Assembly (NCBI GenBank): GCA_963805975.1
Contig: CAWDVR010000002.1
Coordinates: forward strand, 776,543 to 840,542
Length of the DNA stretch: 64,000 nucleotides
Reading direction: 5' to 3'
Source: an uncultured Acidobacteriota bacterium
GTDB lineage: Bacteria > Acidobacteriota > Thermoanaerobaculia > Multivoradales > SZUA-115
In this document: in pieces, positions 15,554 to 39,775 of the stretch
How the letters are laid out: each line of letters starts with the position of its first letter
Numbering within the stretch: the first letter of the stretch is position 1
Program-made: the position numbers and the translations under genes
Notes under the pieces: model-generated
What the model was told of the DNA's origin: nothing
Seen by the model: the letters and a program-made list of their open reading frames with translations, nothing else
Database searches by the model: none

Positions 15554-17383
15554 TCACCAGCCGCACACCCGTCCTCTGTTCTGCTCGTCGAGCCAGGTCT
15601 TGAGCGGCGCGAAGTAATCGAGGATCGCCGTGGCGTCCATCTGCCGCTCGCCGGAGAGCGCTTCGAGGGCCTCCGGCCAGGGCCGCGAGCTGCCCATGGC
15701 GAGCATCTTCTCGAGCTTCTCGCCGGCCGCTTTGTTGCCGTAGATCGAGCCGCGATGGAGCGGCCCCTGGCAGCCGGCCGTCGCGCAGAGCGCGCGGTGG
15801 AACTGGAACTGGAGGATGTCGGCGAGGAAGTAGCGCGTGTACGGCACGTTGCCCGGCACATGGAACTTGGAGCCGGGGTCGAAGTCCGCTTCGCTCCTCG
15901 CCACCGGCGGCTCGATGCCCTGGTACTTGCGCACCAGCTCCCACCACGAGCGGTTGTAGTCGGCGGGCTTGATCTCGCCCGAGAACACCTTCCAGCGCCA
16001 CTGGTCGATGAGCAGCCCGAAGGGCAGGAAGGCCACCTTGTCGAGCGCGCGCTGCATCAGGAGGCCGAGGTCCTTCGACGGATCGGGCTCGTTCGGGATC
16101 AGGCCGATGTCCTTGAGGTACTTGGGGGTCACCGACAGCGCGACGGTGTCGCCCACGGCCTCGTGGAAGCCGTCGTTGGCGCTGTCGCGATAGAGGTGCG
16201 GCTGGTGCTTGTAGGCGCGCTGGTAGAAGTTGTGCCCCAGCTCGTGATGGATGGTCGAGAAGTCCTCCTCGTCGATGCCGATGCACATCTTGATGCGCAG
16301 GTCGTCCTCGGCGTCGATGTCCCAGGCGCTCGCGTGGCAGATCACCTCGCGATCCGGCGGGCGCACGAACATCGAGCGTTCCCAGAAGGTCTGCGGCAGG
16401 GGATCGAAGCCCAGCGAGGTGAAGAAGCGCTCGCCGGAGCGCACCATCTCCTTCTCGTCGTACTTGGCGGCCCTGAGCGCCGCCGTCAGGTCGAAGCCGG
16501 GGTCGGCGTCGGCGGGCCCCACCAGCGAGTAGATGCCCTGCCAGTCCTGGGCCCACATGTTGCCCAGGAGGTGGGCGGGGATCGGCCGGTCTGGCGGCAC
16601 CAGCTTGGTGCCGTAGTGCTCGCCGAGCTTGGCCCGCACGTGGCAATGGAGAGCGTCGTAGAGCGGCTTGACCTGGCCCCACAGCCGGTCGAGCTCCGCC
16701 CCGAAGTCGTCCGGCGGCATGTCGTAGGCCGAGCGCCACAGGGCGCCGACGTCCGGGTAGCCCAGCTCGCGGGCGCCTTGGTTGGAGATCTGGACCAGGC
16801 GTTCGAACTCGGGCCGCATGGGCGGCGACACCGTGCGCCAGCCCACCCAGATGTCCTGGAGCTCGGCAGGGTCGCGGCCCTCCCACATCATGCGCTCCAT
16901 GACGTCGAGCGTCAGGCACTCGCCGTTCGGCTTGCAGTACTTGCCACTCCCGAAGCGCGAGTTGAGGGAGGCGGCGAGACGCGCCAGCTCGGAGCCCAGG
17001 GCCGGGTCGGAAGGCGCCGGCAGGACGAGCCCGCGCTTCAGGATCTCGAGCTTGCGCCGCACGTCGTAGGGCAGCTCGAGCCCGTTGAAGCGCGCCGCCT
17101 GCTTGGCGATCTCGACGCCCGCCGCGGTCACGCGCTCGCTGGCGAGGGCGCCCAGGATCTCGGTGTCGTGGGTGATGTGCGTCTCCTGCACCCAGGCGGC
17201 GCGCTGCGCCTCCTCCGCGAGGCCGGCCAGCCGCTTCTCCGCCGCCTCGGCGAAGGCCTGGGCCTCCTGGGCGGTGGGCGCCGGGGCGGCGCCCGCCTTC
17301 ACCTTGTCTGCACCGAGAGCGGCCAACGCCGGCACCAGCGTCAGGCAGGCCGAGAGCACCAAGAGAATCTGGAATCGGGTCAT
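15554..17383 (-). CDS. M2-family zinc peptidyl-dipeptidase (angiotensin-converting-enzyme-like), secreted
   Basis: HEXXH zinc motif HHELGHNFYQ plus downstream EAVGDTVALS. Signal peptide. Length and motif order match bacterial ACE homologues. Confidence 0.85.
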   Translation of the reverse strand: MTRFQILLVLSACLTLVPALAALGADKVKAGAAPAPTAQEAQAFAEAAEKRLAGLAEEAQRAAWVQETHITHDTEILGALASERVTAAGVEIAKQAARFNGLELPYDVRRKLEILKRGLVLPAPSDPALGSELARLAASLNSRFGSGKYCKPNGECLTLDVMERMMWEGRDPAELQDIWVGWRTVSPPMRPEFERLVQISNQGARELGYPDVGALWRSAYDMPPDDFGAELDRLWGQVKPLYDALHCHVRAKLGEHYGTKLVPPDRPIPAHLLGNMWAQDWQGIYSLVGPADADPGFDLTAALRAAKYDEKEMVRSGERFFTSLGFDPLPQTFWERSMFVRPPDREVICHASAWDIDAEDDLRIKMCIGIDEEDFSTIHHELGHNFYQRAYKHQPHLYRDSANDGFHEAVGDTVALSVTPKYLKDIGLIPNEPDPSKDLGLLMQRALDKVAFLPFGLLIDQWRWKVFSGEIKPADYNRSWWELVRKYQGIEPPVARSEADFDPGSKFHVPGNVPYTRYFLADILQFQFHRALCATAGCQGPLHRGSIYGNKAAGEKLEKMLAMGSSRPWPEALEALSGERQMDATAILDYFAPLKTWLDEQNRGRVCGW

Positions 17384-17384
17384 T

Positions 17385-18560
17385 TCATGCTCCTGACGCG
17401 AGCGCGTTCGCGATGCGGGAAAGGGCCGTCTCGAGGGTCTGCCGCGAGCAGGCGAAGGAGATGCGTACGTGGTCGTCGTCCCCGAAGGCGATGCCCGGCA
17501 CTACCGCCACCCCGGCCTGGTGCAGCAGGAACTCCGAGAGCTCCACCGAGCCCTGGCGGCCCGGCCGGTAGCAGCCGGCGACGTTGGGGAAGGCGTAGAA
17601 GGTACCGCGCGGCGGCGCGCAGCGGAACCCGGGGATCCGCGCCAGGCCCGCGGTGACGAGATCGCGGCGCGCCAGGTACTCGGCGATCATCGCCTCGACC
17701 TCCGGCTCGGCCGCGGCCAGCGCCCCGAGCGCTCCCTTCATGGCAAACGAGGTGGGGTTCGAGGTGCTGTGGCTCTGGAGCGTCGCCATCGCCTTGACGA
17801 GGCCGGGCGGGCCGAACACGTAGCCCAGCCGCCAGCCGGTCATGGCGTAGGTCTTGGAGAAAGAACCGACCAGCACCACGGTCTCCGGGAACTCCGCCGC
17901 CAGGCTCGCCGAGCTCGCGAAGCCGTCGCCGTAGACGAAGCGGTCGTAGGTTTCGTCGGCGATGAACGGGATGCCGCGCGCCGCGCAGGCTTCGACCACG
18001 CGCCGCAGATCCTCGGCCGCCATGATGCCGCCGGTCGGGTTGGATGGTGAGTTGACGAGCACGGCGCGGGTGCGCTCGGAGAGCGCCCTGAGGATGGGCT
18101 CGGCGTGGATCGTGAACCCGTCCTCGCCGGCCGTCGGCACCAGCACCGGGGTCGCGCCGGTCAAGCGGATCTGCTCGGGAAAGCTCACCCAGCAGGGGCT
18201 CGGCAGCACCACCTCGTCGCCCTGATCGAAGAGGGCGAGCGCCAGGTGGTAGAGGGCCATCTTCGCGCCCACCGTGATCAGGCCGTCCCCGGCGCTCCAG
18301 GGAGCTCCATAGCGGCGGGCGAGCACCGCGGCCACGGCCTGCCGCAGCTCCTTGAGACCATTGCCGTCCGTGTACTTGGTAAAGCCCTGGGTGAGGGCCT
18401 CGCGCGCGGCGTCGACCGCCACCCTGGGCGAGCCGAAGTCGGGCTCGCCGACGCCCAGGTCCAGCACGTCTTTCCCCTGGGCGCGCAGCTCGGCCGCCAG
18501 CCGTCCCACCTTGAGCGTGGTCGACTCGCCGACTCGCGCCATGCGGGCCGCGAGCTTCAT
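17385..18560 (-). CDS. Class I/II pyridoxal-phosphate-dependent aminotransferase (aspartate-aminotransferase-like)
   Basis: PLP-lysine motif SFSKTYAMTGWRLGY, NPTG, typical fold-type I order. Confidence 0.9.
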   Translation of the reverse strand: MKLAARMARVGESTTLKVGRLAAELRAQGKDVLDLGVGEPDFGSPRVAVDAAREALTQGFTKYTDGNGLKELRQAVAAVLARRYGAPWSAGDGLITVGAKMALYHLALALFDQGDEVVLPSPCWVSFPEQIRLTGATPVLVPTAGEDGFTIHAEPILRALSERTRAVLVNSPSNPTGGIMAAEDLRRVVEACAARGIPFIADETYDRFVYGDGFASSASLAAEFPETVVLVGSFSKTYAMTGWRLGYVFGPPGLVKAMATLQSHSTSNPTSFAMKGALGALAAAEPEVEAMIAEYLARRDLVTAGLARIPGFRCAPPRGTFYAFPNVAGCYRPGRQGSVELSEFLLHQAGVAVVPGIAFGDDDHVRISFACSRQTLETALSRIANALASGA

Positions 18561-33336: not shown

Positions 33337-33567
33337 TCAGGCGCGGCCAGCGAGGCTCTTGACCGTCTCGGAGACCTGGGCGCCCTTGCTCACCCAGTAG
33401 TCGTAGCGCTCGCGGTCGAGCTTGACCTCGGCCGGCTTGCGCTCGGGATCGTAGTGGCCGATCTGCTCGACGGCCGCGGCCCTGGGGGTGCGGCGGCTGT
33501 CAGAGACCACCACCCGGTAGAAGGCGCGGTTGGTGGTGCCGGTGCGCCGCAGTCGAATCGTCAACAT
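33337..33567 (-). CDS. rpsP: 30S ribosomal protein S16
   Basis: MLTIRLRRTGTTNRAFYRVVVSDSRRTPR...YDPE. Start at the internal ATG 33567 with GGAGG SD. The ORF-track N-terminal extension is spurious. Confidence 0.93.
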   Translation of the reverse strand: MLTIRLRRTGTTNRAFYRVVVSDSRRTPRAAAVEQIGHYDPERKPAEVKLDRERYDYWVSKGAQVSETVKSLAGRA

Positions 33568-33713
33568 GGCTTTGGAAGGACCTCCGGGGGTTGTTTCGAC
33601 GCACGGCGAGCGTTCCGCCCAGCCGCGCGAAGCGTCGGATGCTACCAGGAAGCCGGACCAGGCGCCAGTCCCGGGCGGGCTCGGCGGCCCGGAGAGCATG
33701 TTACGCTGTCGCC

Positions 33714-35606
33714 ATGACCAAACGTCTCACGACTCCCATGGTTCGCGACCGGCGCGGAGCGCCGCTCCGGCCGGCGACCTGGGACGAGGCGTTGGATCGA
33801 GCCGCCGCCGGCCTCTCCTCCGTGGTGGAGGCCCGCGGCCCGCGCGCTTTCGGGCTCTTCAGCTGCTCGAAGGCGACGAACGAGATGAACTACGCGGCGG
33901 GCAAGTTCGCGCGCGCGGTCATCGGCTCGAACAACGTCGACAGCTGCAACCGCACCTGACACGCCCCGAGCGTCGCCGGTCTGGCGACTGTGTTCGGAGC
34001 GGGTGGCGGCACGAGCTCCTACCAGGAGATCGAAGAGACGAGTTGTATCTTGCTGTGGGGCTCGAACGCGCGGGAGACGCACCCGATCTTCTTCCACCAT
34101 CTGCTGAAGGGCATGAGAAACGGCGCCCGCCTCTACACGATCGACCCGCGCCGCACCTCCTCGGCCGCCTGGGCCGACCTGTGGGCCGGGCTCGAGGTGG
34201 GCACGGACATCGCGCTCGCCCACACCATGGCGCGGGAGATCATCGCCGCCGGGCTCGTCAACCAGGAGTTCGTCGAGCACGCGACCAGCGGCTTCGAGGC
34301 CTATCGTGAGTCAGTCGAGCCCTGGACTCTGGAGCGCGGCGCGGCCGAGACCGGCGTGCCGGCGGCGGTGATCCGCGAGATCGCCCACGCCTACGCCCAG
34401 GCGCCCCGCGCCATGATCTGCTGGACGCTCGGCATCACCGAGCACCACAACGCGGTCGACAACGTGGTGTCGCTCATCAACCTCTCGCTGCTCACCGGCC
34501 ACGTCGGCCGCTACGGCTCGGGGCTCAACCCGCTCCGGGGCCAGAACAACGTCCAGGGCGGCGGCGACATGGGGGCGCTCCCCGACCGCCTGCCCGGCTT
34601 CCAGCACCTGGAGAACGCGCCGCTGCGCGAGAAGTTCGAGGCCGCCTGGGGCGCCAGGATCCCGCCGCAGGGCGGCTGGCACCTCTCGGGGATGTTCGAC
34701 GCCATGGAACGCGGCGAGCTCACCGCCCTCTACGTGATCGGCGAGAACCCGTTGCGCTCCGAGGCGGACCAGCACCGGGCGAGGAAGCTGCTCGAGGGCC
34801 TCGAGTGCCTGATCGTGCAGGACGTGGTCGAGACCGCCACCTCCGAGATTGCGGACGTGGTGCTGCCGGCGGCGGCGGGCTGGTGCGAGTCCGAAGGTAC
34901 TGTCACCTCGAGCGAGCGGCGGGTGCAGCGGGTGCGTCGCGCCCTGCCGCCGCCGGCCGGCGCCCGCGACGACCTCGAGATCATCTTCGGCCTGGCCAAC
35001 CGCCTGGGCAAGAGCTGGGGCGAGCCCGACCCCGAGGCGCTCTGGAACGAGCTGCGGACCGTCTCCCCCATGCACGCCGGCATGAGCTATGCGCGGCTCG
35101 AGGCCGAGGGCGGCATCCAGTGGCCCTGCTACGACGACCACCACCCGGGCGAGCTCTTCCTGCACAGCCGGCTCTGGGAGCGGCCGGTGAAAGGGCCGCG
35201 GGCGCCCTTCAGCGTGGTCGAGCACGACCTGCCGGTCGACCGCCTGGACGACGATTTCCCGATGCGCCTCACCACCGGCCGCCGGCTCGAGGAGTACAAC
35301 ACCGGCGTGCAGACGGCGGGCTACAGCTCGCCGGTGCGCCGCGGCGAGACCCTGGACCTCTCCCCCGAGGATGCCGTGCGGCTGGGTTTCGCCGAGGGCG
35401 AGAGGGCGCGTGTCTCGTCGCGCCGCGGCAGTGTCGAGGCGCCGGTGCACATCGACCCCGCCCTGCGGCCGGGGCTGTCGTTCATGACCTTCCACTTCCC
35501 CGAGGAAGTGCCCACCAACCTCCTCACCATCGATGCCACGGACCCGCGCTCCGGCACGGCGGAGTTCAAGGCGACGGCGGTCCGCATCGAGCGCCCAGAG
35601 GCCTGA
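33714..35606 (+). CDS. fdhA: Formate dehydrogenase catalytic (Mo/W-bisPGD) subunit, selenocysteine-containing; the in-frame TGA at 33957..33959 is read as Sec; lacks the usual N-terminal Fe-S domains (split gene)
   Basis: Two track ORFs, 33591..33959 and 33990..35606, are in the same frame separated by a single TGA. The junction reads NVDSCNRT-[TGA]-HAPSVAGL, homologous to E. coli FdhF ...CARV-U-HGPSVA. The N-terminus MTKRLTTPMVRDRRG aligns to the FdhF region after its 4Fe-4S domain. Confidence 0.85.
33966..33997 (+). ncRNA. SECIS-like hairpin, about 12 nt downstream of the UGA; apical loop GGUCU
   Basis: Stem gcgtcgcc / ggcgac, 6 bp, closing the loop ggtct (33978..33982), plus a possible lower stem ccga/tcgg. 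Distance and GGUC loop resemble the E. coli fdhF SECIS. Confidence 0.6.
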
Positions 35607-35609
35607 GCC

Positions 35610-37538
35610 TTGGACATCCGGGTCACCGGCGCCGAGCCGAGCGCGGAGGAGCGGGCGGCGGTCGATCGACTGCTCGGGCCGGCGCCTTCGAGCTGGGAGG
35701 GCGGGGAGCGGGGCCGGGGTGAGGACGCGCGGTCCGCTCGCGCCGGCTTCCACGAGTCCCGCGAGCGGCGGGACCTGCTGCTGCCGGCGCTCCACGCCGT
35801 GCAGGACCGCGTGGGCTGGATCAGCGAGGGCGCGCTCAACTACATTTGCCTGCGGCTGATCGTGCCGCCCGCCGAGGCCTGGGGCGTGGTGAGCTTCTAC
35901 CACCTGTTCGCGACCGAGCCCCGGCCGCCGCTGGTGGTCCACGTCTGTGACGACCTCGCCTGCCGGCTCCACGGCGCGGAGCGGCTGTGCACAGCTCTCG
36001 AGCACTCGGCAGGGCCGGAGCGAGCGCCGCTCGCCGGCGGCCGCACCACCTGGCAGCGCAGCCCCTGCCTCGGCCAGTGCGAGCGCGCCCCGGCGGTGCT
36101 GGTCCAGACCGCCGGCGAGGCGCCGCACGCCGAGGTGCTGGCCCCGGTGGCGGAGGCGGACGTGCTCGGTGCTCTCGGCCTCGCCCTGGACCGAGTGCAA
36201 GTACCTGCCGCCGGAAATGACCTGGAGGCAGTGCCGGATCGCCTCGCCGCAGCGCGCGTGTCCACACCCCAGGCGGGAAGCGACGGCCTGCGGCTCCTCG
36301 CCCGGGTCGGCGTGGTCGACCCCGAGAGCCTCGAGGCCTACCGCGCGAGCGGCGGCTATCAGGCCCTCGCCCGCGCCCTGGAGCTGGGACCCGCGGGCGT
36401 GACCGGAGAGGTGCTGGCCTCGAAGCTCCTGGGCCGCGGCGGCGCCGCCTTCCCCACCGGCCGCAAGTGGCAGGCGGTGGCCGCGGCCCCGGCCCTGCCG
36501 CGCTACCTGGTGTGCAATGCCGACGAGTCCGAGCCCGGCACGTTCAAGGACCGGGTATTGCTCGAGGAAGACCCCTTCGCGGTCGTCGAGTCGATGACGA
36601 TCGCGGCTTTCGCCTGCGGCTGCGAGCGCGGCTTCGTCTACCTGCGCGGCGAGTACCCTCTCGCCCACCGGCGCTTGGATAACGCCATCGCCGCGGCACG
36701 GCAGGCCGGTCTCCTGGGCGACGACGTGGCCGGTTCGAGCTTCCGCTTCGATCTCGAGATCCGCCGCGGCGCTGGCGCCTACATCTGCGGCGAGGAGACG
36801 GCGCTCTTCAACTCGATCGAGGGCAAGCGCGGCGAGCCGCGCTCGAAGCCGCCGTTCCCCAGCGAGTTCGGCCTGTTCGGCAAGCCGACGGTGGTCAACA
36901 ACGTCGAGACCCTGGCCAACGTGCCCTGGGTCCTGCGCGAAGGCGGCGCGGCCTTCGCCGCGCTCGGCAGCGGCGGCTCGACCGGCAGCAAGCTGTTCTG
37001 CGTCTCCGGCCACGTCACCCGGCCGGGTCTCTACGAGGTGCCGTTCGGCACCACGCTGGGAGAGCTGCTGGAGCTGGCGGGCGGGGTCGCCGGGGGGCGA
37101 AGCCTCGCGGCCATCCTCTTGGGCGGGGCCGCGGGCGCCTTCGTGGGGCCGGAGGCTCTCGCCACCCCTCTCACCTTCGAAGGCACCCGCGCCGCGGGCG
37201 CCACGCTCGGCTCGGGCGTGGTGCTGGTCTACGACGAGACCGCCGACTTGGGCGACGCCCTGCTGCGCGTCGCGAGCTTCTTCCGGCACGAGTCCTGCGG
37301 CCAGTGCGTGCCCTGCCGGGTGGGCACCGTGCGCCAGGAAGAGCTGCTCCAGCGCTTGCGCCGAGCCCGGCCCCTGGGCTCGCGGGCCGAGGAGCTGGCG
37401 CTCTTTGCCGAGCTCTCGCAGGCGATGCGCGACGCCTCGATCTGCGGCCTCGGCCAAACCGCCTCCTCCGCCATCGAGTCCGCCCTCGCCCGCTTCGATC
37501 CCTTCCCTGCCGCCCCTCCCTTTGGAGCGCAGCCGTGA
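35610..37538 (+). CDS. NAD(H)-binding formate dehydrogenase beta/gamma fusion (NuoE-like 2Fe-2S thioredoxin-fold + NuoF-like FMN/NADH/4Fe-4S)
   Basis: NuoE-like CDDLACRLHG...SPCLGQCERAP. NuoF-like GGAAFPTGRKW, CNADESEPGTFKDR, ESCGQCVPCRVGT. Confidence 0.9.
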   Translation: MDIRVTGAEPSAEERAAVDRLLGPAPSSWEGGERGRGEDARSARAGFHESRERRDLLLPALHAVQDRVGWISEGALNYICLRLIVPPAEAWGVVSFYHLFATEPRPPLVVHVCDDLACRLHGAERLCTALEHSAGPERAPLAGGRTTWQRSPCLGQCERAPAVLVQTAGEAPHAEVLAPVAEADVLGALGLALDRVQVPAAGNDLEAVPDRLAAARVSTPQAGSDGLRLLARVGVVDPESLEAYRASGGYQALARALELGPAGVTGEVLASKLLGRGGAAFPTGRKWQAVAAAPALPRYLVCNADESEPGTFKDRVLLEEDPFAVVESMTIAAFACGCERGFVYLRGEYPLAHRRLDNAIAAARQAGLLGDDVAGSSFRFDLEIRRGAGAYICGEETALFNSIEGKRGEPRSKPPFPSEFGLFGKPTVVNNVETLANVPWVLREGGAAFAALGSGGSTGSKLFCVSGHVTRPGLYEVPFGTTLGELLELAGGVAGGRSLAAILLGGAAGAFVGPEALATPLTFEGTRAAGATLGSGVVLVYDETADLGDALLRVASFFRHESCGQCVPCRVGTVRQEELLQRLRRARPLGSRAEELALFAELSQAMRDASICGLGQTASSAIESALARFDPFPAAPPFGAQP

Positions 37539-38443
37539 GCACCGACCCGATCTGGTTCAACCCGGCCCCGCCGCCGTCTCGCGTGCCGGCGGCGCCGCCC
37601 CGCGCGCCACGACCGCAGGTGGAGCTCTCGATCGACGGCCAGGCGGTCACCGTGGAGCAGGGCGCGACCGTGCTCGAGGCCTGCCGGAAAGCCGGCGTCG
37701 AGGTGCCGACCCTCTGCTACCTGGAGACGCTCACGCCGGTCAACGCCTGCCGCCTCTGCGTGGTGGAGCAGGAAGGCGCGAGGGTGCTGGTGCCGGCCTG
37801 CTCGCGCAAGGCCGAGCCGGGGATGAAGATCCACACCAACTCGGAGCGCGTGCGGCTGTCGCGCAAGCTGGTGCTGGAGCTCCTGGGCTCGTCAGTCGAT
37901 CTCTCGACCGCTCCCGGCCTGGCCGAGACCATGGCCGAGTATGGCGCCCGCCCGGAGCGCTTCGGCACCGGTGCCACCGTGGCGCAGCCGCCCAAGATCG
38001 ACAACGACCTCTACGTGCGTGACTACGGCAAGTGCGTGCTTTGCTACAAGTGCGTGGAGGCCTGCGGCTACGACGCCCAGAACACCTTCGCCATCGCCGT
38101 GGCCGGCCGCGGCTTCGACGCCCACATCTCGACCGAGTGGGACGTGCCGCTGCCCACCTCGGCCTGCGTCTACTGCGGCAACTGCATCGCCGTCTGCCCC
38201 ACCGGGGCGCTGATGGCGAGCCCCGAGTTCGAGCTGCGCCGCGAAGGAAAATGGGACGAGTCCCGCCAGACGAAGACCGACACCATCTGCGGCTACTGCG
38301 GCGTGGGCTGCACCCTCACCCTGCACGTCCAGGACGAGCGCATCGTCAAGGCCACCTCGCCCTTCGAGAACTCCGTGACGCAGGGCAATCTTTGCGTCAA
38401 GGGCAGGTTCGGGTTCGAGTTCGTGCAGAAAGGGCGGGGCTAG
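37535..38443 (+). CDS. Fe-S subunit equivalent to the N-terminal part of FdsA/NuoG (2Fe-2S ferredoxin + 4Fe-4S clusters + MopB-type 4Fe-4S domain), encoded separately and downstream
   Basis: GTG start at 37535 overlaps the upstream stop (GTGA). CYLETLTPVNACRLCVV, CVLCYKCVEAC, CVYCGNCIAVCP, and C-terminal ICGYCGVGCTL...NLCVKGRFGFEFVQ, which is the MopB 4Fe-4S motif that normally directly precedes the LTxP region of the catalytic domain. Confidence 0.85.
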   Translation: MSTDPIWFNPAPPPSRVPAAPPRAPRPQVELSIDGQAVTVEQGATVLEACRKAGVEVPTLCYLETLTPVNACRLCVVEQEGARVLVPACSRKAEPGMKIHTNSERVRLSRKLVLELLGSSVDLSTAPGLAETMAEYGARPERFGTGATVAQPPKIDNDLYVRDYGKCVLCYKCVEACGYDAQNTFAIAVAGRGFDAHISTEWDVPLPTSACVYCGNCIAVCPTGALMASPEFELRREGKWDESRQTKTDTICGYCGVGCTLTLHVQDERIVKATSPFENSVTQGNLCVKGRFGFEFVQKGRG

Positions 38444-38453
38444 CTAGCCGCCC
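38432..38453. terminator. Palindromic hairpin GGGCGGGGCTAG/CTAGCCGCCC spanning the abutting convergent stop codons (TAG of the Fe-S gene, CTA = TAG of ffh); the TTTCT tail on the minus side suggests a terminator at least for ffh
   Basis: Read directly from the sequence. Confidence 0.45.
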
Positions 38454-39775
38454 AGCGCCCGCTTCAGCCAGCTTCCCTTGACGCCCTTGAGCATCTTGCG
38501 CATGCCCTTGTACTGCTTCAGGAGCTTGTTGATGTCCTGGACGGTGGTGCCGGAGCCCTGGGCGATGCGCCGCTTGCGGCTGCCGTCCAAGAGCTGAGGC
38601 AGGCGGCGCTCGCGGGCGGTCATCGAGTTGACGATCGCCTCGACGCGCTGCAACTGGCTCTCGTCCACGTTGGCGGCGTCGAGCCCCTTGAGCGGCCCCA
38701 CCTTGGGCATCAGCTCCATCACCTGGCCCAAGGGCCCCATCTTCCGCAACTGGCGGAGCTGATCGCGCAGGTCCTCGAGCGTGAACTCGCGGGAGATCAG
38801 GCGCTTGGCCAGGCGCTCGGTCTCGCCCGAGTCGAGCCCCTTTTCGGCCTTCTCGATCAGCGACAGCACGTCGCCCATGCCGAGCATGCGCGAGGCGATG
38901 CGGTCCGGGTGGTAGAGCTCCAGGTCGTCGGCCTTCTCGCCCATGCCGACGTAGCGGATCGGCACCTGGGCAACAGTACGGATCGAGAGCGCCGCTCCGC
39001 CGCGGCTGTCGCCGTCGAGCTTGGTCAGGATGACGCCGGTGAGCGGGAGCTGCTCGGCGAACTCCTGGGCGCTCTTGACCGCGTCCTGGCCGGTCATGGC
39101 GTCGGCCACGAAGAGGGTCTCGGAGGGCTTGATGAGCTCGGCCAGCGCGCGGATCTCCTGCATCAGCGCCGCGTCCACGTGCAGGCGGCCGGCGGTGTCG
39201 ACGATCACTACGTCGTGGCCGCGGTCCTTCGCCTCGCGGATGGCACGGGGAGCGAGCTCGAGCACCGTCTCGCCCGGCTGCGGTGTCGCCACCGCCACTC
39301 CCACCCCGGCCCCCACCTGCCGGAGCTGCTCGACGGCCGCGGCGCGCTGCAGGTCGCCGGCCACCAGCAACGGGTGGCGGCCGCGGGCCTTGAGCTGCTT
39401 GGCGAGCTTGCCGGCGGTGGTGGTCTTGCCCGAGCCCTGGAGGCCGCAGAGCATGACCACCGTGGGACGGCCGTCGAGCTTGAGCTCGGCCCCGGCACCG
39501 GGGCCGCCCAGGAGCTCGATCAGCTCGTCGCGGACGATCTTGATCACCTGCTGGGCGCCCGACAGGCTGGCCAGCACCTCCTGGCCCTCGGCCCGCTCGC
39601 GCACGCGGTCGATGAACGGCTTGACCACACGCACGTGGACGTCCGCCTCGAGGAGCGCCAGGCGCACCTGGCGCAGCGCCCCGGCCAGCACGTCGGCGGA
39701 GATGCGGCCCTCACCCCGAAGCTGGTGAAAGACCTCTTGCAGCTTGCCCTGGAGACCGTCGAACATGGATTGCAC
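38444..39775 (-). CDS. ffh: Signal recognition particle protein Ffh
   Basis: GLQGSGKTTTAGKLA, DTAGRL, TKLDGDSRGGAALS, Met-rich M-domain. Start may be the internal MFDGLQ. Confidence 0.95.
   Translation of the reverse strand: MQSMFDGLQGKLQEVFHQLRGEGRISADVLAGALRQVRLALLEADVHVRVVKPFIDRVRERAEGQEVLASLSGAQQVIKIVRDELIELLGGPGAGAELKLDGRPTVVMLCGLQGSGKTTTAGKLAKQLKARGRHPLLVAGDLQRAAAVEQLRQVGAGVGVAVATPQPGETVLELAPRAIREAKDRGHDVVIVDTAGRLHVDAALMQEIRALAELIKPSETLFVADAMTGQDAVKSAQEFAEQLPLTGVILTKLDGDSRGGAALSIRTVAQVPIRYVGMGEKADDLELYHPDRIASRMLGMGDVLSLIEKAEKGLDSGETERLAKRLISREFTLEDLRDQLRQLRKMGPLGQVMELMPKVGPLKGLDAANVDESQLQRVEAIVNSMTARERRLPQLLDGSRKRRIAQGSGTTVQDINKLLKQYKGMRKMLKGVKGSWLKRALGG

Follow-up and report, generated by a model that had tools for sequence, protein, structure and literature searches.

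The 64 kb stretch of Acidobacteriota DNA analysed here (the window; ~70% G+C) carries three adjacent genes that most probably encode one soluble, cytoplasmic, NAD+-linked formate dehydrogenase (FDH) of the FdsABG/MeFDH1 type, with a molybdenum- or tungsten-bis(pyranopterin guanine dinucleotide) (Mo/W-bisPGD) centre and an alpha subunit that is cut in two at the boundary between its [4Fe–4S] domain FS0 and its pterin-binding domains. The alpha subunit of NAD-linked FDHs is normally a single chain, in which NuoG-like Fe–S domains are followed by a MopB 4Fe–4S domain and the Mo-bisPGD catalytic domain. Here the gene for the catalytic part comes first, a NuoE–NuoF fusion gene second and the gene for the Fe–S domains last (Table 1). 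The split and the permuted order are genuine and conserved; they define a large clade that extends over several phyla and takes in hundreds of mostly uncultured soil bacteria. The initial annotation of this DNA had recognized the fission and the permutation, both of which stand; it had overlooked an in-frame UGA with a hairpin resembling a selenocysteine insertion sequence (SECIS). The cofactor set lacks the cluster A5 and is nearer to that of MeFDH1 than to that of FdsA.

In Pfam scans the catalytic protein consists of nearly complete Molybdopterin (profile positions 1–352 of 353) and Molydop_binding (1–109 of 110) domains and contains no Fe–S domain. The NuoEF protein contains 2Fe-2S_thioredx, Complex1_51K, SLBB and NADH_4Fe-4S within one open reading frame (ORF), and the Fe–S protein contains Fer2_4, a 4Fe-4S dicluster domain and Molybdop_Fe4S4. 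Residue 1 of the catalytic protein corresponds to residue 58 of Escherichia coli FdhF in the PDB alignment, the match spanning FdhF 58–686, while residues 247–298 of the Fe–S protein align with FdhF 3–53 and its final residue, 302, is equivalent to FdhF 57 (the FdhF sequence used for the Fe–S protein is consistent with the PDB alignment of the catalytic protein). Similarly, residues 22–296 of the Fe–S protein align with R. capsulatus FdsA 18–302 and residues 4–625 of the catalytic protein with FdsA 308–931. The NCBIfam model TIGR01591 is shared out in the same manner, with model positions 1–50 on the Fe–S protein and 51–672 on the catalytic protein; the latter scores 609 bits, under the 666-bit equivalog cut-off. 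The NuoEF gene starts with TTG 3 nt past the stop codon of the catalytic gene, and the GTG start of the Fe–S gene overlaps the NuoEF stop codon as GTGA (37535–37538). The initial annotation had described a separate catalytic gene devoid of the Fe–S domain, a separate gene for the missing N-terminal part, a junction exactly after the MopB Fe–S domain, a reversed order around a fused NuoE–NuoF gene and the start/stop overlap. All of these are borne out: the two halves tile against FdsA and FdhF and the junction residues align (FdhF 57/58; TIGR01591 50/51). The cut thus lies between the FS0 [4Fe–4S] domain and the remaining MopB fold.

FS0, with its four cysteines and one lysine, is thus found on the separate Fe–S protein and not on the catalytic chain. 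Lys289 of the Fe–S protein is the equivalent of FdhF Lys44 in the alignment, the residue that links FS0 with the pterin in the FdhF structure, and must therefore act in trans. The Fe–S protein possesses 16 invariant cysteines in four groups, corresponding to one [2Fe–2S] cluster, two ferredoxin-type [4Fe–4S] clusters and FS0. The stretch opposite the FdsA motif HPLDCLTCAANGDC contains neither His nor Cys, and the His-ligated [4Fe–4S] site A5 of FdsA is absent. The catalytic protein retains the motif CNRT-U-HAPSV, in which Sec82–His83 (Sec, selenocysteine) corresponds to FdhF U140–H141, and the arginine of PLRGQNNVQG, which corresponds to FdhF R333. The NuoEF protein ends 12 residues past its NADH_4Fe-4S domain, and the Pfam scan detects no extra Fer4 domains and no C-terminal ferredoxin extension in it. 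The best PDB match of its NuoF part scores 396 bits and C. necator FdsB scores 375 bits. Both the Fe–S protein (~27 residues, Pro-rich, DPIWF.PPP...; 37535..37615) and the NuoEF protein (~48 residues; 35610..35755) have extended N-termini, which can be aligned from the first residue onward across many related loci. In MeFDH1 the beta subunit's N-terminus touches the cap domain of the alpha subunit (PMC10869683).

The signals in and around the TGA at 33957–33959 identify the catalytic gene as a selenoprotein gene, with this TGA as its predicted active-site Sec codon. The triplet is codon 82 (CNRT*HAPSV), stands at the position of FdhF Sec140, is followed by His and is kept in 65 of the 65 validly aligned related loci. 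A hairpin with a 6-bp stem and a GGUCU loop begins 13 nt after the UGA. The GGUC of the loop comprises nucleotides 22–25 counted from the U of UGA, which is the spacing in the E. coli fdhF SECIS. Among 66 distinct homologous sequences all six base pairs are always Watson–Crick or G–U, and one of them varies, being C–G in 26, U–G in 27, U–A in 13 and C–A in none. The wobble T of the loop GGT is invariant although the G+C content at third codon positions (GC3) is above 0.9. A longer lower stem in the minimum-free-energy fold around the UGA (z = −0.5) was rejected, as the homologues do not conserve it and retain just the apical 6-bp hairpin. In cultured Saccharopolyspora the Sec position is occupied by Cys within an uninterrupted ORF of 635–640 amino acids. 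At a Limnocylindrales locus (L017) the catalytic gene is immediately preceded upstream by the tRNA-Sec gene (selC), SelD (TIGR00476, 350 bits; cut-off 125) and FdhD. One NCBI record, for the homologue at the Thermoanaerobaculia locus L001, reads through the TGA to give 632 amino acids, and most database gene calls of the Sec form comprise only an ORF of ~538 amino acids; in the window the mechanical ORF call begins at 33990 because of the in-frame TGA. A single divergent copy without Sec (L002 1255..5820; 55% identical) has Gly at this position, QRRNN in place of RGQNN, GGC in place of GGT in the hairpin loop and no C-terminal cap domain. Its NuoEF and Fe–S genes look intact, and L002 may be a decaying or repurposed copy.

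The distribution of the arrangement was surveyed in one genome per GTDB species using clade-specific search patterns, with locus detail taken from the best 80 of at least 595. Relatives of the Fe–S gene are present in at least 595 species genomes, and the best 80 loci belong to Acidobacteriota (several classes), Chloroflexota, Gemmatimonadota, Eremiobacterota, Dormibacterota, Planctomycetota and Eisenbacteria. The catalytic, NuoEF and Fe–S genes follow one another in this order on one strand at all of these loci with a spanning contig except one (L014). The order, the break point and intact ORFs are common to upwards of 80 independent assemblies, which represent at least seven phyla, and to isolate genomes, and this conservation excludes a chance arrangement. 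The isolate Saccharopolyspora antimicrobica, for example, has the same order with proteins 61–65% identical to those of the window, and the order is also kept in the 55%-identical L002. Nearly all related loci likewise have NuoE and NuoF joined in one ORF, and every Fe–S ORF in these loci terminates 5–40 residues past the KGRFG motif. The best 120 database matches to the Fe–S protein are all stand-alone proteins of ~290–390 amino acids, and those retrieved with a planctomycete member as the query are likewise stand-alone. For the Fe–S protein of the window itself a look-up retrieved no record. The initial annotation had named a contiguous fdsA in related genomes as the observation that would overturn it; the ~240 best Fe–S matches of both queries are without exception stand-alone, the same permuted split recurs across the phyla listed, and its proposal that the genes are expressed as arranged and do not reflect a break in the assembly is supported. 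Stand-alone matches of ~360–375 amino acids resembled other split forms; the two inspected in sequence, P0197 and P0201, which end in ...IDHCARL and ...IDNCSRA, are fused FdhA genes truncated at the Sec codon. The genomic surroundings vary between related loci. At L001 (9276..10004) a secreted-looking rhodanese–thioredoxin fusion is encoded on the same strand between the NuoEF and Fe–S genes.

The nearest fused relatives recovered, P0211 and P0226, show 41–46% identity, and members of the split clade are 55–92% identical to the window proteins. In a neighbour-joining tree of the catalytic part all split forms fall into one clade on a long stem, whose internal grouping follows the phyla for the most part, a few taxa being out of place. 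The tree provisionally suggests a single origin followed by vertical descent with some horizontal transfer. P0226 has the gene order nuoE-nuoF-fdhA and, like the split clade, is without the His-ligated cluster. An ancient single event could have produced the present order: a tandem duplication of NuoE (E), NuoF (F), N-terminal (N) and catalytic (C) parts to E-F-N-C-E-F-N-C with loss of the outer ends would leave C-E-F-N, the operon-level counterpart of circular permutation by duplication. Two points tell against this history: the tree is a neighbour-joining tree rooted on three fused sequences, a thin sampling for monophyly, and no relics of a duplication are found, neither an Fe–S fragment upstream of the catalytic gene nor a catalytic fragment downstream of the Fe–S gene.

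The reading of the three genes as a three-subunit NAD+-linked FDH is preferred because the cofactor set is that of MeFDH1 and because the NuoEF protein has no extra ferredoxin domains. The domain content, the exact tiling, the conserved ligands, the cross-phylum gene order and the Sec signals are direct observations, to which we add by inference one three-protein complex together with its NAD+ specificity, catalytic direction and metal identity. By homology, formate would be oxidized at the Sec-ligated metal centre of the catalytic subunit. The electrons would exit via the FS0 cluster and the bridging Lys289, both of which the Fe–S subunit would provide in trans through its C-terminal domain, pass through the two ferredoxin-type [4Fe–4S] clusters and then the [2Fe–2S] cluster of the same subunit, and finally reach NAD+ by way of the NuoF [4Fe–4S] cluster and the flavin mononucleotide (FMN) of the NuoE–NuoF fusion.

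The in-frame TGA and the odd gene order do resemble damage, and the distant copy L002 is truly degenerate, yet it is extremely improbable that the locus is an assembly or rearrangement artefact or the decaying pseudogene remnant of a contiguous fdsA. The order, the break point and the intact ORFs recur in independent assemblies and in isolates, the three co-directional ORFs (33714..38443) have GC3 values of 0.91–0.95 that are typical of coding DNA in the window, and the TGA is conserved together with its SECIS-like hairpin. We also regard as very improbable that TGA 33957 is a true stop that leaves two ORFs (81 and 538–549 amino acids), the longer of which would be inactive or a different enzyme. 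Most database calls do give the ORF of ~538 amino acids only, and no Sec machinery is found in the window; on the other hand, the TGA is invariant at the exact active-site position and is followed by His, the hairpin covaries around an invariant GGU, cultured relatives have Cys in an uninterrupted ORF, the operon of L017 directly adjoins genes for tRNA-Sec and SelD, and a database record has been read through the codon.

Two further explanations concern what the intact products do. The NuoEF and Fe–S proteins could form a HoxEFU-like general diaphorase, the catalytic protein working alone or with another partner. Several observations speak for this, and the first two also weigh against one enzyme. 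A Chloroflexota genome assembled from a metagenome (L014 1..8918) retains NuoEF, Fe–S and FdhD genes with no catalytic gene within 6 kb upstream. An unrelated gene on the opposite strand parts the NuoEF and Fe–S genes at L008 (6988..7950, −) and L009 (6521..7870, −), so that co-translation is not obligatory and the Fe–S gene can be transcribed separately. In addition, N-terminal models of HoxU and [FeFe]-hydrogenase give scores for the Fe–S protein. A further point against the main reading is that the 64-kb window contains no fdhD, molybdenum cofactor (Moco) or Sec-machinery genes. A separate diaphorase is nonetheless quite unlikely, given a catalytic protein without an Fe–S cluster of its own, FS0 and the pterin-bridging lysine located exactly at the C-terminus of the Fe–S protein, and three genes that stay together at every spanning locus except L014; we know of no role for an FS0 domain apart from a MopB catalytic domain. 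Alternatively, the same complex could act as a CO2 reductase that supplies formate for C1 assimilation, or as a Bfu-type electron-bifurcating enzyme. Sec-containing FDHs of anaerobes often run reductively, a formate-tetrahydrofolate ligase adjoins the operon in seven loci, and the top PDB matches of the NuoF part include the bifurcating HydB and NfnB. Bfu B subunits, however, typically carry extra C-terminal ferredoxin-type clusters, whereas NuoEF stops right after NADH_4Fe-4S, and the linkage to formyl-CoA transferase in two phyla indicates formate disposal; this alternative is considered unlikely.

For the NAD+-linked formate-oxidizing enzyme, a tentative and rather doubtful proposal is that the catalytic-gene-first order and the split are functional rather than neutral, combining a selenium gate with separate Moco and Sec maturation in a modular, plug-in FDH. 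A UGA at codon 82 of the first gene would tie the expression of the downstream genes to the selenium supply, by translational coupling across the 3-nt gap and the GTGA overlap or by transcriptional polarity. A cluster-free catalytic subunit could mature its Moco and Sec separately before docking on a pre-assembled HoxEFU-like diaphorase.

The tungsten FDH1 of Methylorubrum extorquens (MeFDH1; Fdh1A/Fdh1B; PDB 7E5Z, 7VW6, 8J83) is likewise soluble and NAD-linked, and, as here, a NuoE-like and a NuoF-like part are joined in a single chain, its beta subunit. Its alpha subunit contains three clusters of the [4Fe–4S] type and one of the [2Fe–2S] type but no A5, and its beta subunit is equivalent to FdsB plus FdsG (PMC10869683). 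The cofactor set here is that of MeFDH1, which is a closer likeness than FdsA; however, the MeFDH1 alpha subunit is one chain of ~990 amino acids with a Cys ligand, whereas here there are two chains cut after FS0, a permuted order and Sec. The NuoF part is not specially near Fdh1B (320 bits versus 396 for its best match), so the E–F fusion may be independent of that in MeFDH1. The FdsABG(D) enzymes of R. capsulatus and C. necator (PDB 6TGA, 6VW7) provide the best PDB match of the Fe–S protein (151 bits; FdsA 18–302) and a strong match to the catalytic part (FdsA 308–931), and the Fds system uses an FdhD-like maturation partner. Fds enzymes differ in having an undivided FdsA, FdsB and FdsG as separate proteins, an A5 cluster, FdsD and a Cys ligand, whereas here the alpha subunit is split, NuoE and NuoF are fused, the A5 motif is absent and FdsD is not seen.

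Docking of an FdhF-type catalytic subunit on separate Fe–S/diaphorase subunits is known from FdhF-HylABC. The proteins most similar to the catalytic part are FdhF of the E. coli formate hydrogenlyase (470 bits) and FdhF of the T. kivui hydrogen-dependent CO2 reductase (451 bits; PDB 7QV7). In these FdhF proteins, as in the present enzyme, Sec occupies the equivalent position with an fdhF-like SECIS, and the electron-transfer subunits are separate from the catalytic one, but the FdhF proteins keep their own FS0 (residues 1–57); here FS0 resides on the partner and the subunit interface lies between FS0 and the pterin. HoxEFU, the diaphorase module of NAD-reducing [NiFe] hydrogenases, also contains a stand-alone protein resembling the NuoG N-terminus, together with NuoE/NuoF-like partners. 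The HoxU model matches residues 30–228 of the Fe–S protein (133 bits), but HoxU lacks the MopB FS0 domain, and the enzyme that it serves is a hydrogenase, not a molybdoenzyme. The textbook example of a MopB enzyme in two polypeptides is FwdB/FwdD of formylmethanofuran dehydrogenase (PMC7331816). In FwdB/FwdD the cut precedes the C-terminal cap (Molydop_binding) and does not follow FS0, and FwdB keeps its own FS0.

A full-text search of the literature on metal-dependent FDHs and the dimethyl sulfoxide reductase family found no description of an FS0/catalytic split. To our knowledge, all characterized metal-dependent FDHs carry FS0 on the catalytic chain. The chemistry and the modules are familiar; unfamiliar are their distribution over the chains and the permutation of the genes. 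Metal-dependent FDHs are intensively studied for CO2 reduction and NADH regeneration. A large natural clade in which FS0 and the pterin-bridging lysine come from another subunit shows that the FS0/catalytic interface can be cut, which has implications for the folding of MopB enzymes and their acquisition of cofactors, and it puts a cluster-free catalytic subunit on offer for engineering. The cultured Saccharopolyspora, with its Cys version, makes the system directly testable. In databases the Sec form usually appears as a fragment of ~538 amino acids, the catalytic protein falls below the equivalog cut-off, and the Fe–S protein goes under the name '2Fe-2S iron-sulfur cluster-binding protein' or 'YjgC'. 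Because automated annotation hides the enzyme in this way, formate oxidation capacity is probably under-counted in Acidobacteriota, Eremiobacterota, Gemmatimonadota and their relatives.

Families of flanking ORFs were defined by clustering with strict coverage. FdhD adjoins the operon in at least 21 loci, and formyl-CoA transferase (TIGR03253, 649 bits, above the cut-off) adjoins it together with a thiamine pyrophosphate (TPP) lyase/decarboxylase in Saccharopolyspora and in an Eremiobacterota assembly. The links with FdhD and with the formyl-CoA transferase/TPP pair favour disposal of formate derived from formyl-CoA. In S. antimicrobica (L088 1..14026; RBXX01000002.1, about 6.565–6.570 Mb) the operon is accompanied by formyl-CoA transferase, the TPP enzyme, an ADP-forming acyl-CoA ligase and FdhD, and an acyl-CoA dehydrogenase gene lies directly downstream. 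The TPP enzyme of this locus resembles oxalyl-CoA decarboxylase or 2-hydroxyacyl-CoA lyase and scores under all equivalog cut-offs. At the Eremiobacterota locus (L020) the same pair of TPP enzyme and frc is upstream of the catalytic gene.

Table 1. Features of the probable formate dehydrogenase locus and its flanks (window coordinates).
Feature	Position	Strand	Remarks
rpsP (ribosomal protein S16)	33337..33567	−	Divergent flank, outside the enzyme; heads rpsP-KH-rimM-trmD-(rplS)-rnhB
Intergenic region, divergent, 146 bp	33568..33713	.	Between the rpsP start (33567) and the catalytic gene
Catalytic gene, 630 aa	33714..35606	+	Mo/W-bisPGD domains, FdhF/FdsA type, without N-terminal FS0
In-frame UGA (Sec codon)	33957..33959	+	Position of FdhF U140
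SECIS-like hairpin, GUCGCC-GGUCU-GGCGAC	33972..33988	+	From sequence and fold; conserved pairs
NuoE–NuoF fusion gene, 642 aa	35610..37538	+	Diaphorase subunit: [2Fe–2S], FMN/NADH site, [4Fe–4S]
Fe–S gene, 302 aa	37535..38443	+	NuoG/HoxU-like N-terminal module plus MopB FS0 domain
FS0 (Molybdop_Fe4S4) domain, Fe–S subunit residues 246–298	38270..38428	+	C252, C255, C259, C287, Lys289
ffh (SRP54)	38444..39775	−	Convergent flank, outside the enzyme

The nearest relatives of the window DNA among database matches are Thermoanaerobaculia (Acidobacteriota) genomes assembled from metagenomes. The FDH genes form an opposite-strand insert exactly between ffh and rpsP-KH-rimM-trmD-rnhB (33337..39775), genes which usually make up one conserved cluster. 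This ffh/rpsP context was found at no other related locus. The divergent intergenic region is presumed to be the promoter region of the FDH genes; a consensus scan for promoters and terminators gave nothing informative, with none in this region. At the other end the stop codons of the Fe–S gene and ffh abut with zero spacer (CTAGCTAG at 38440–38447), leaving no space for a terminator. ARAGORN called an 82-nt tRNA-Ala (cgc) within the catalytic gene (34331..34412, −). The call was rejected, since the Rfam scan of the window finds no tRNA there, nor any tRNA or other family elsewhere; GC-rich coding DNA has probably given rise to a spurious call here. Elsewhere in the window (15554..17500, −) a full-length bacterial homologue of angiotensin-converting enzyme is encoded (Peptidase_M2, 734 bits).

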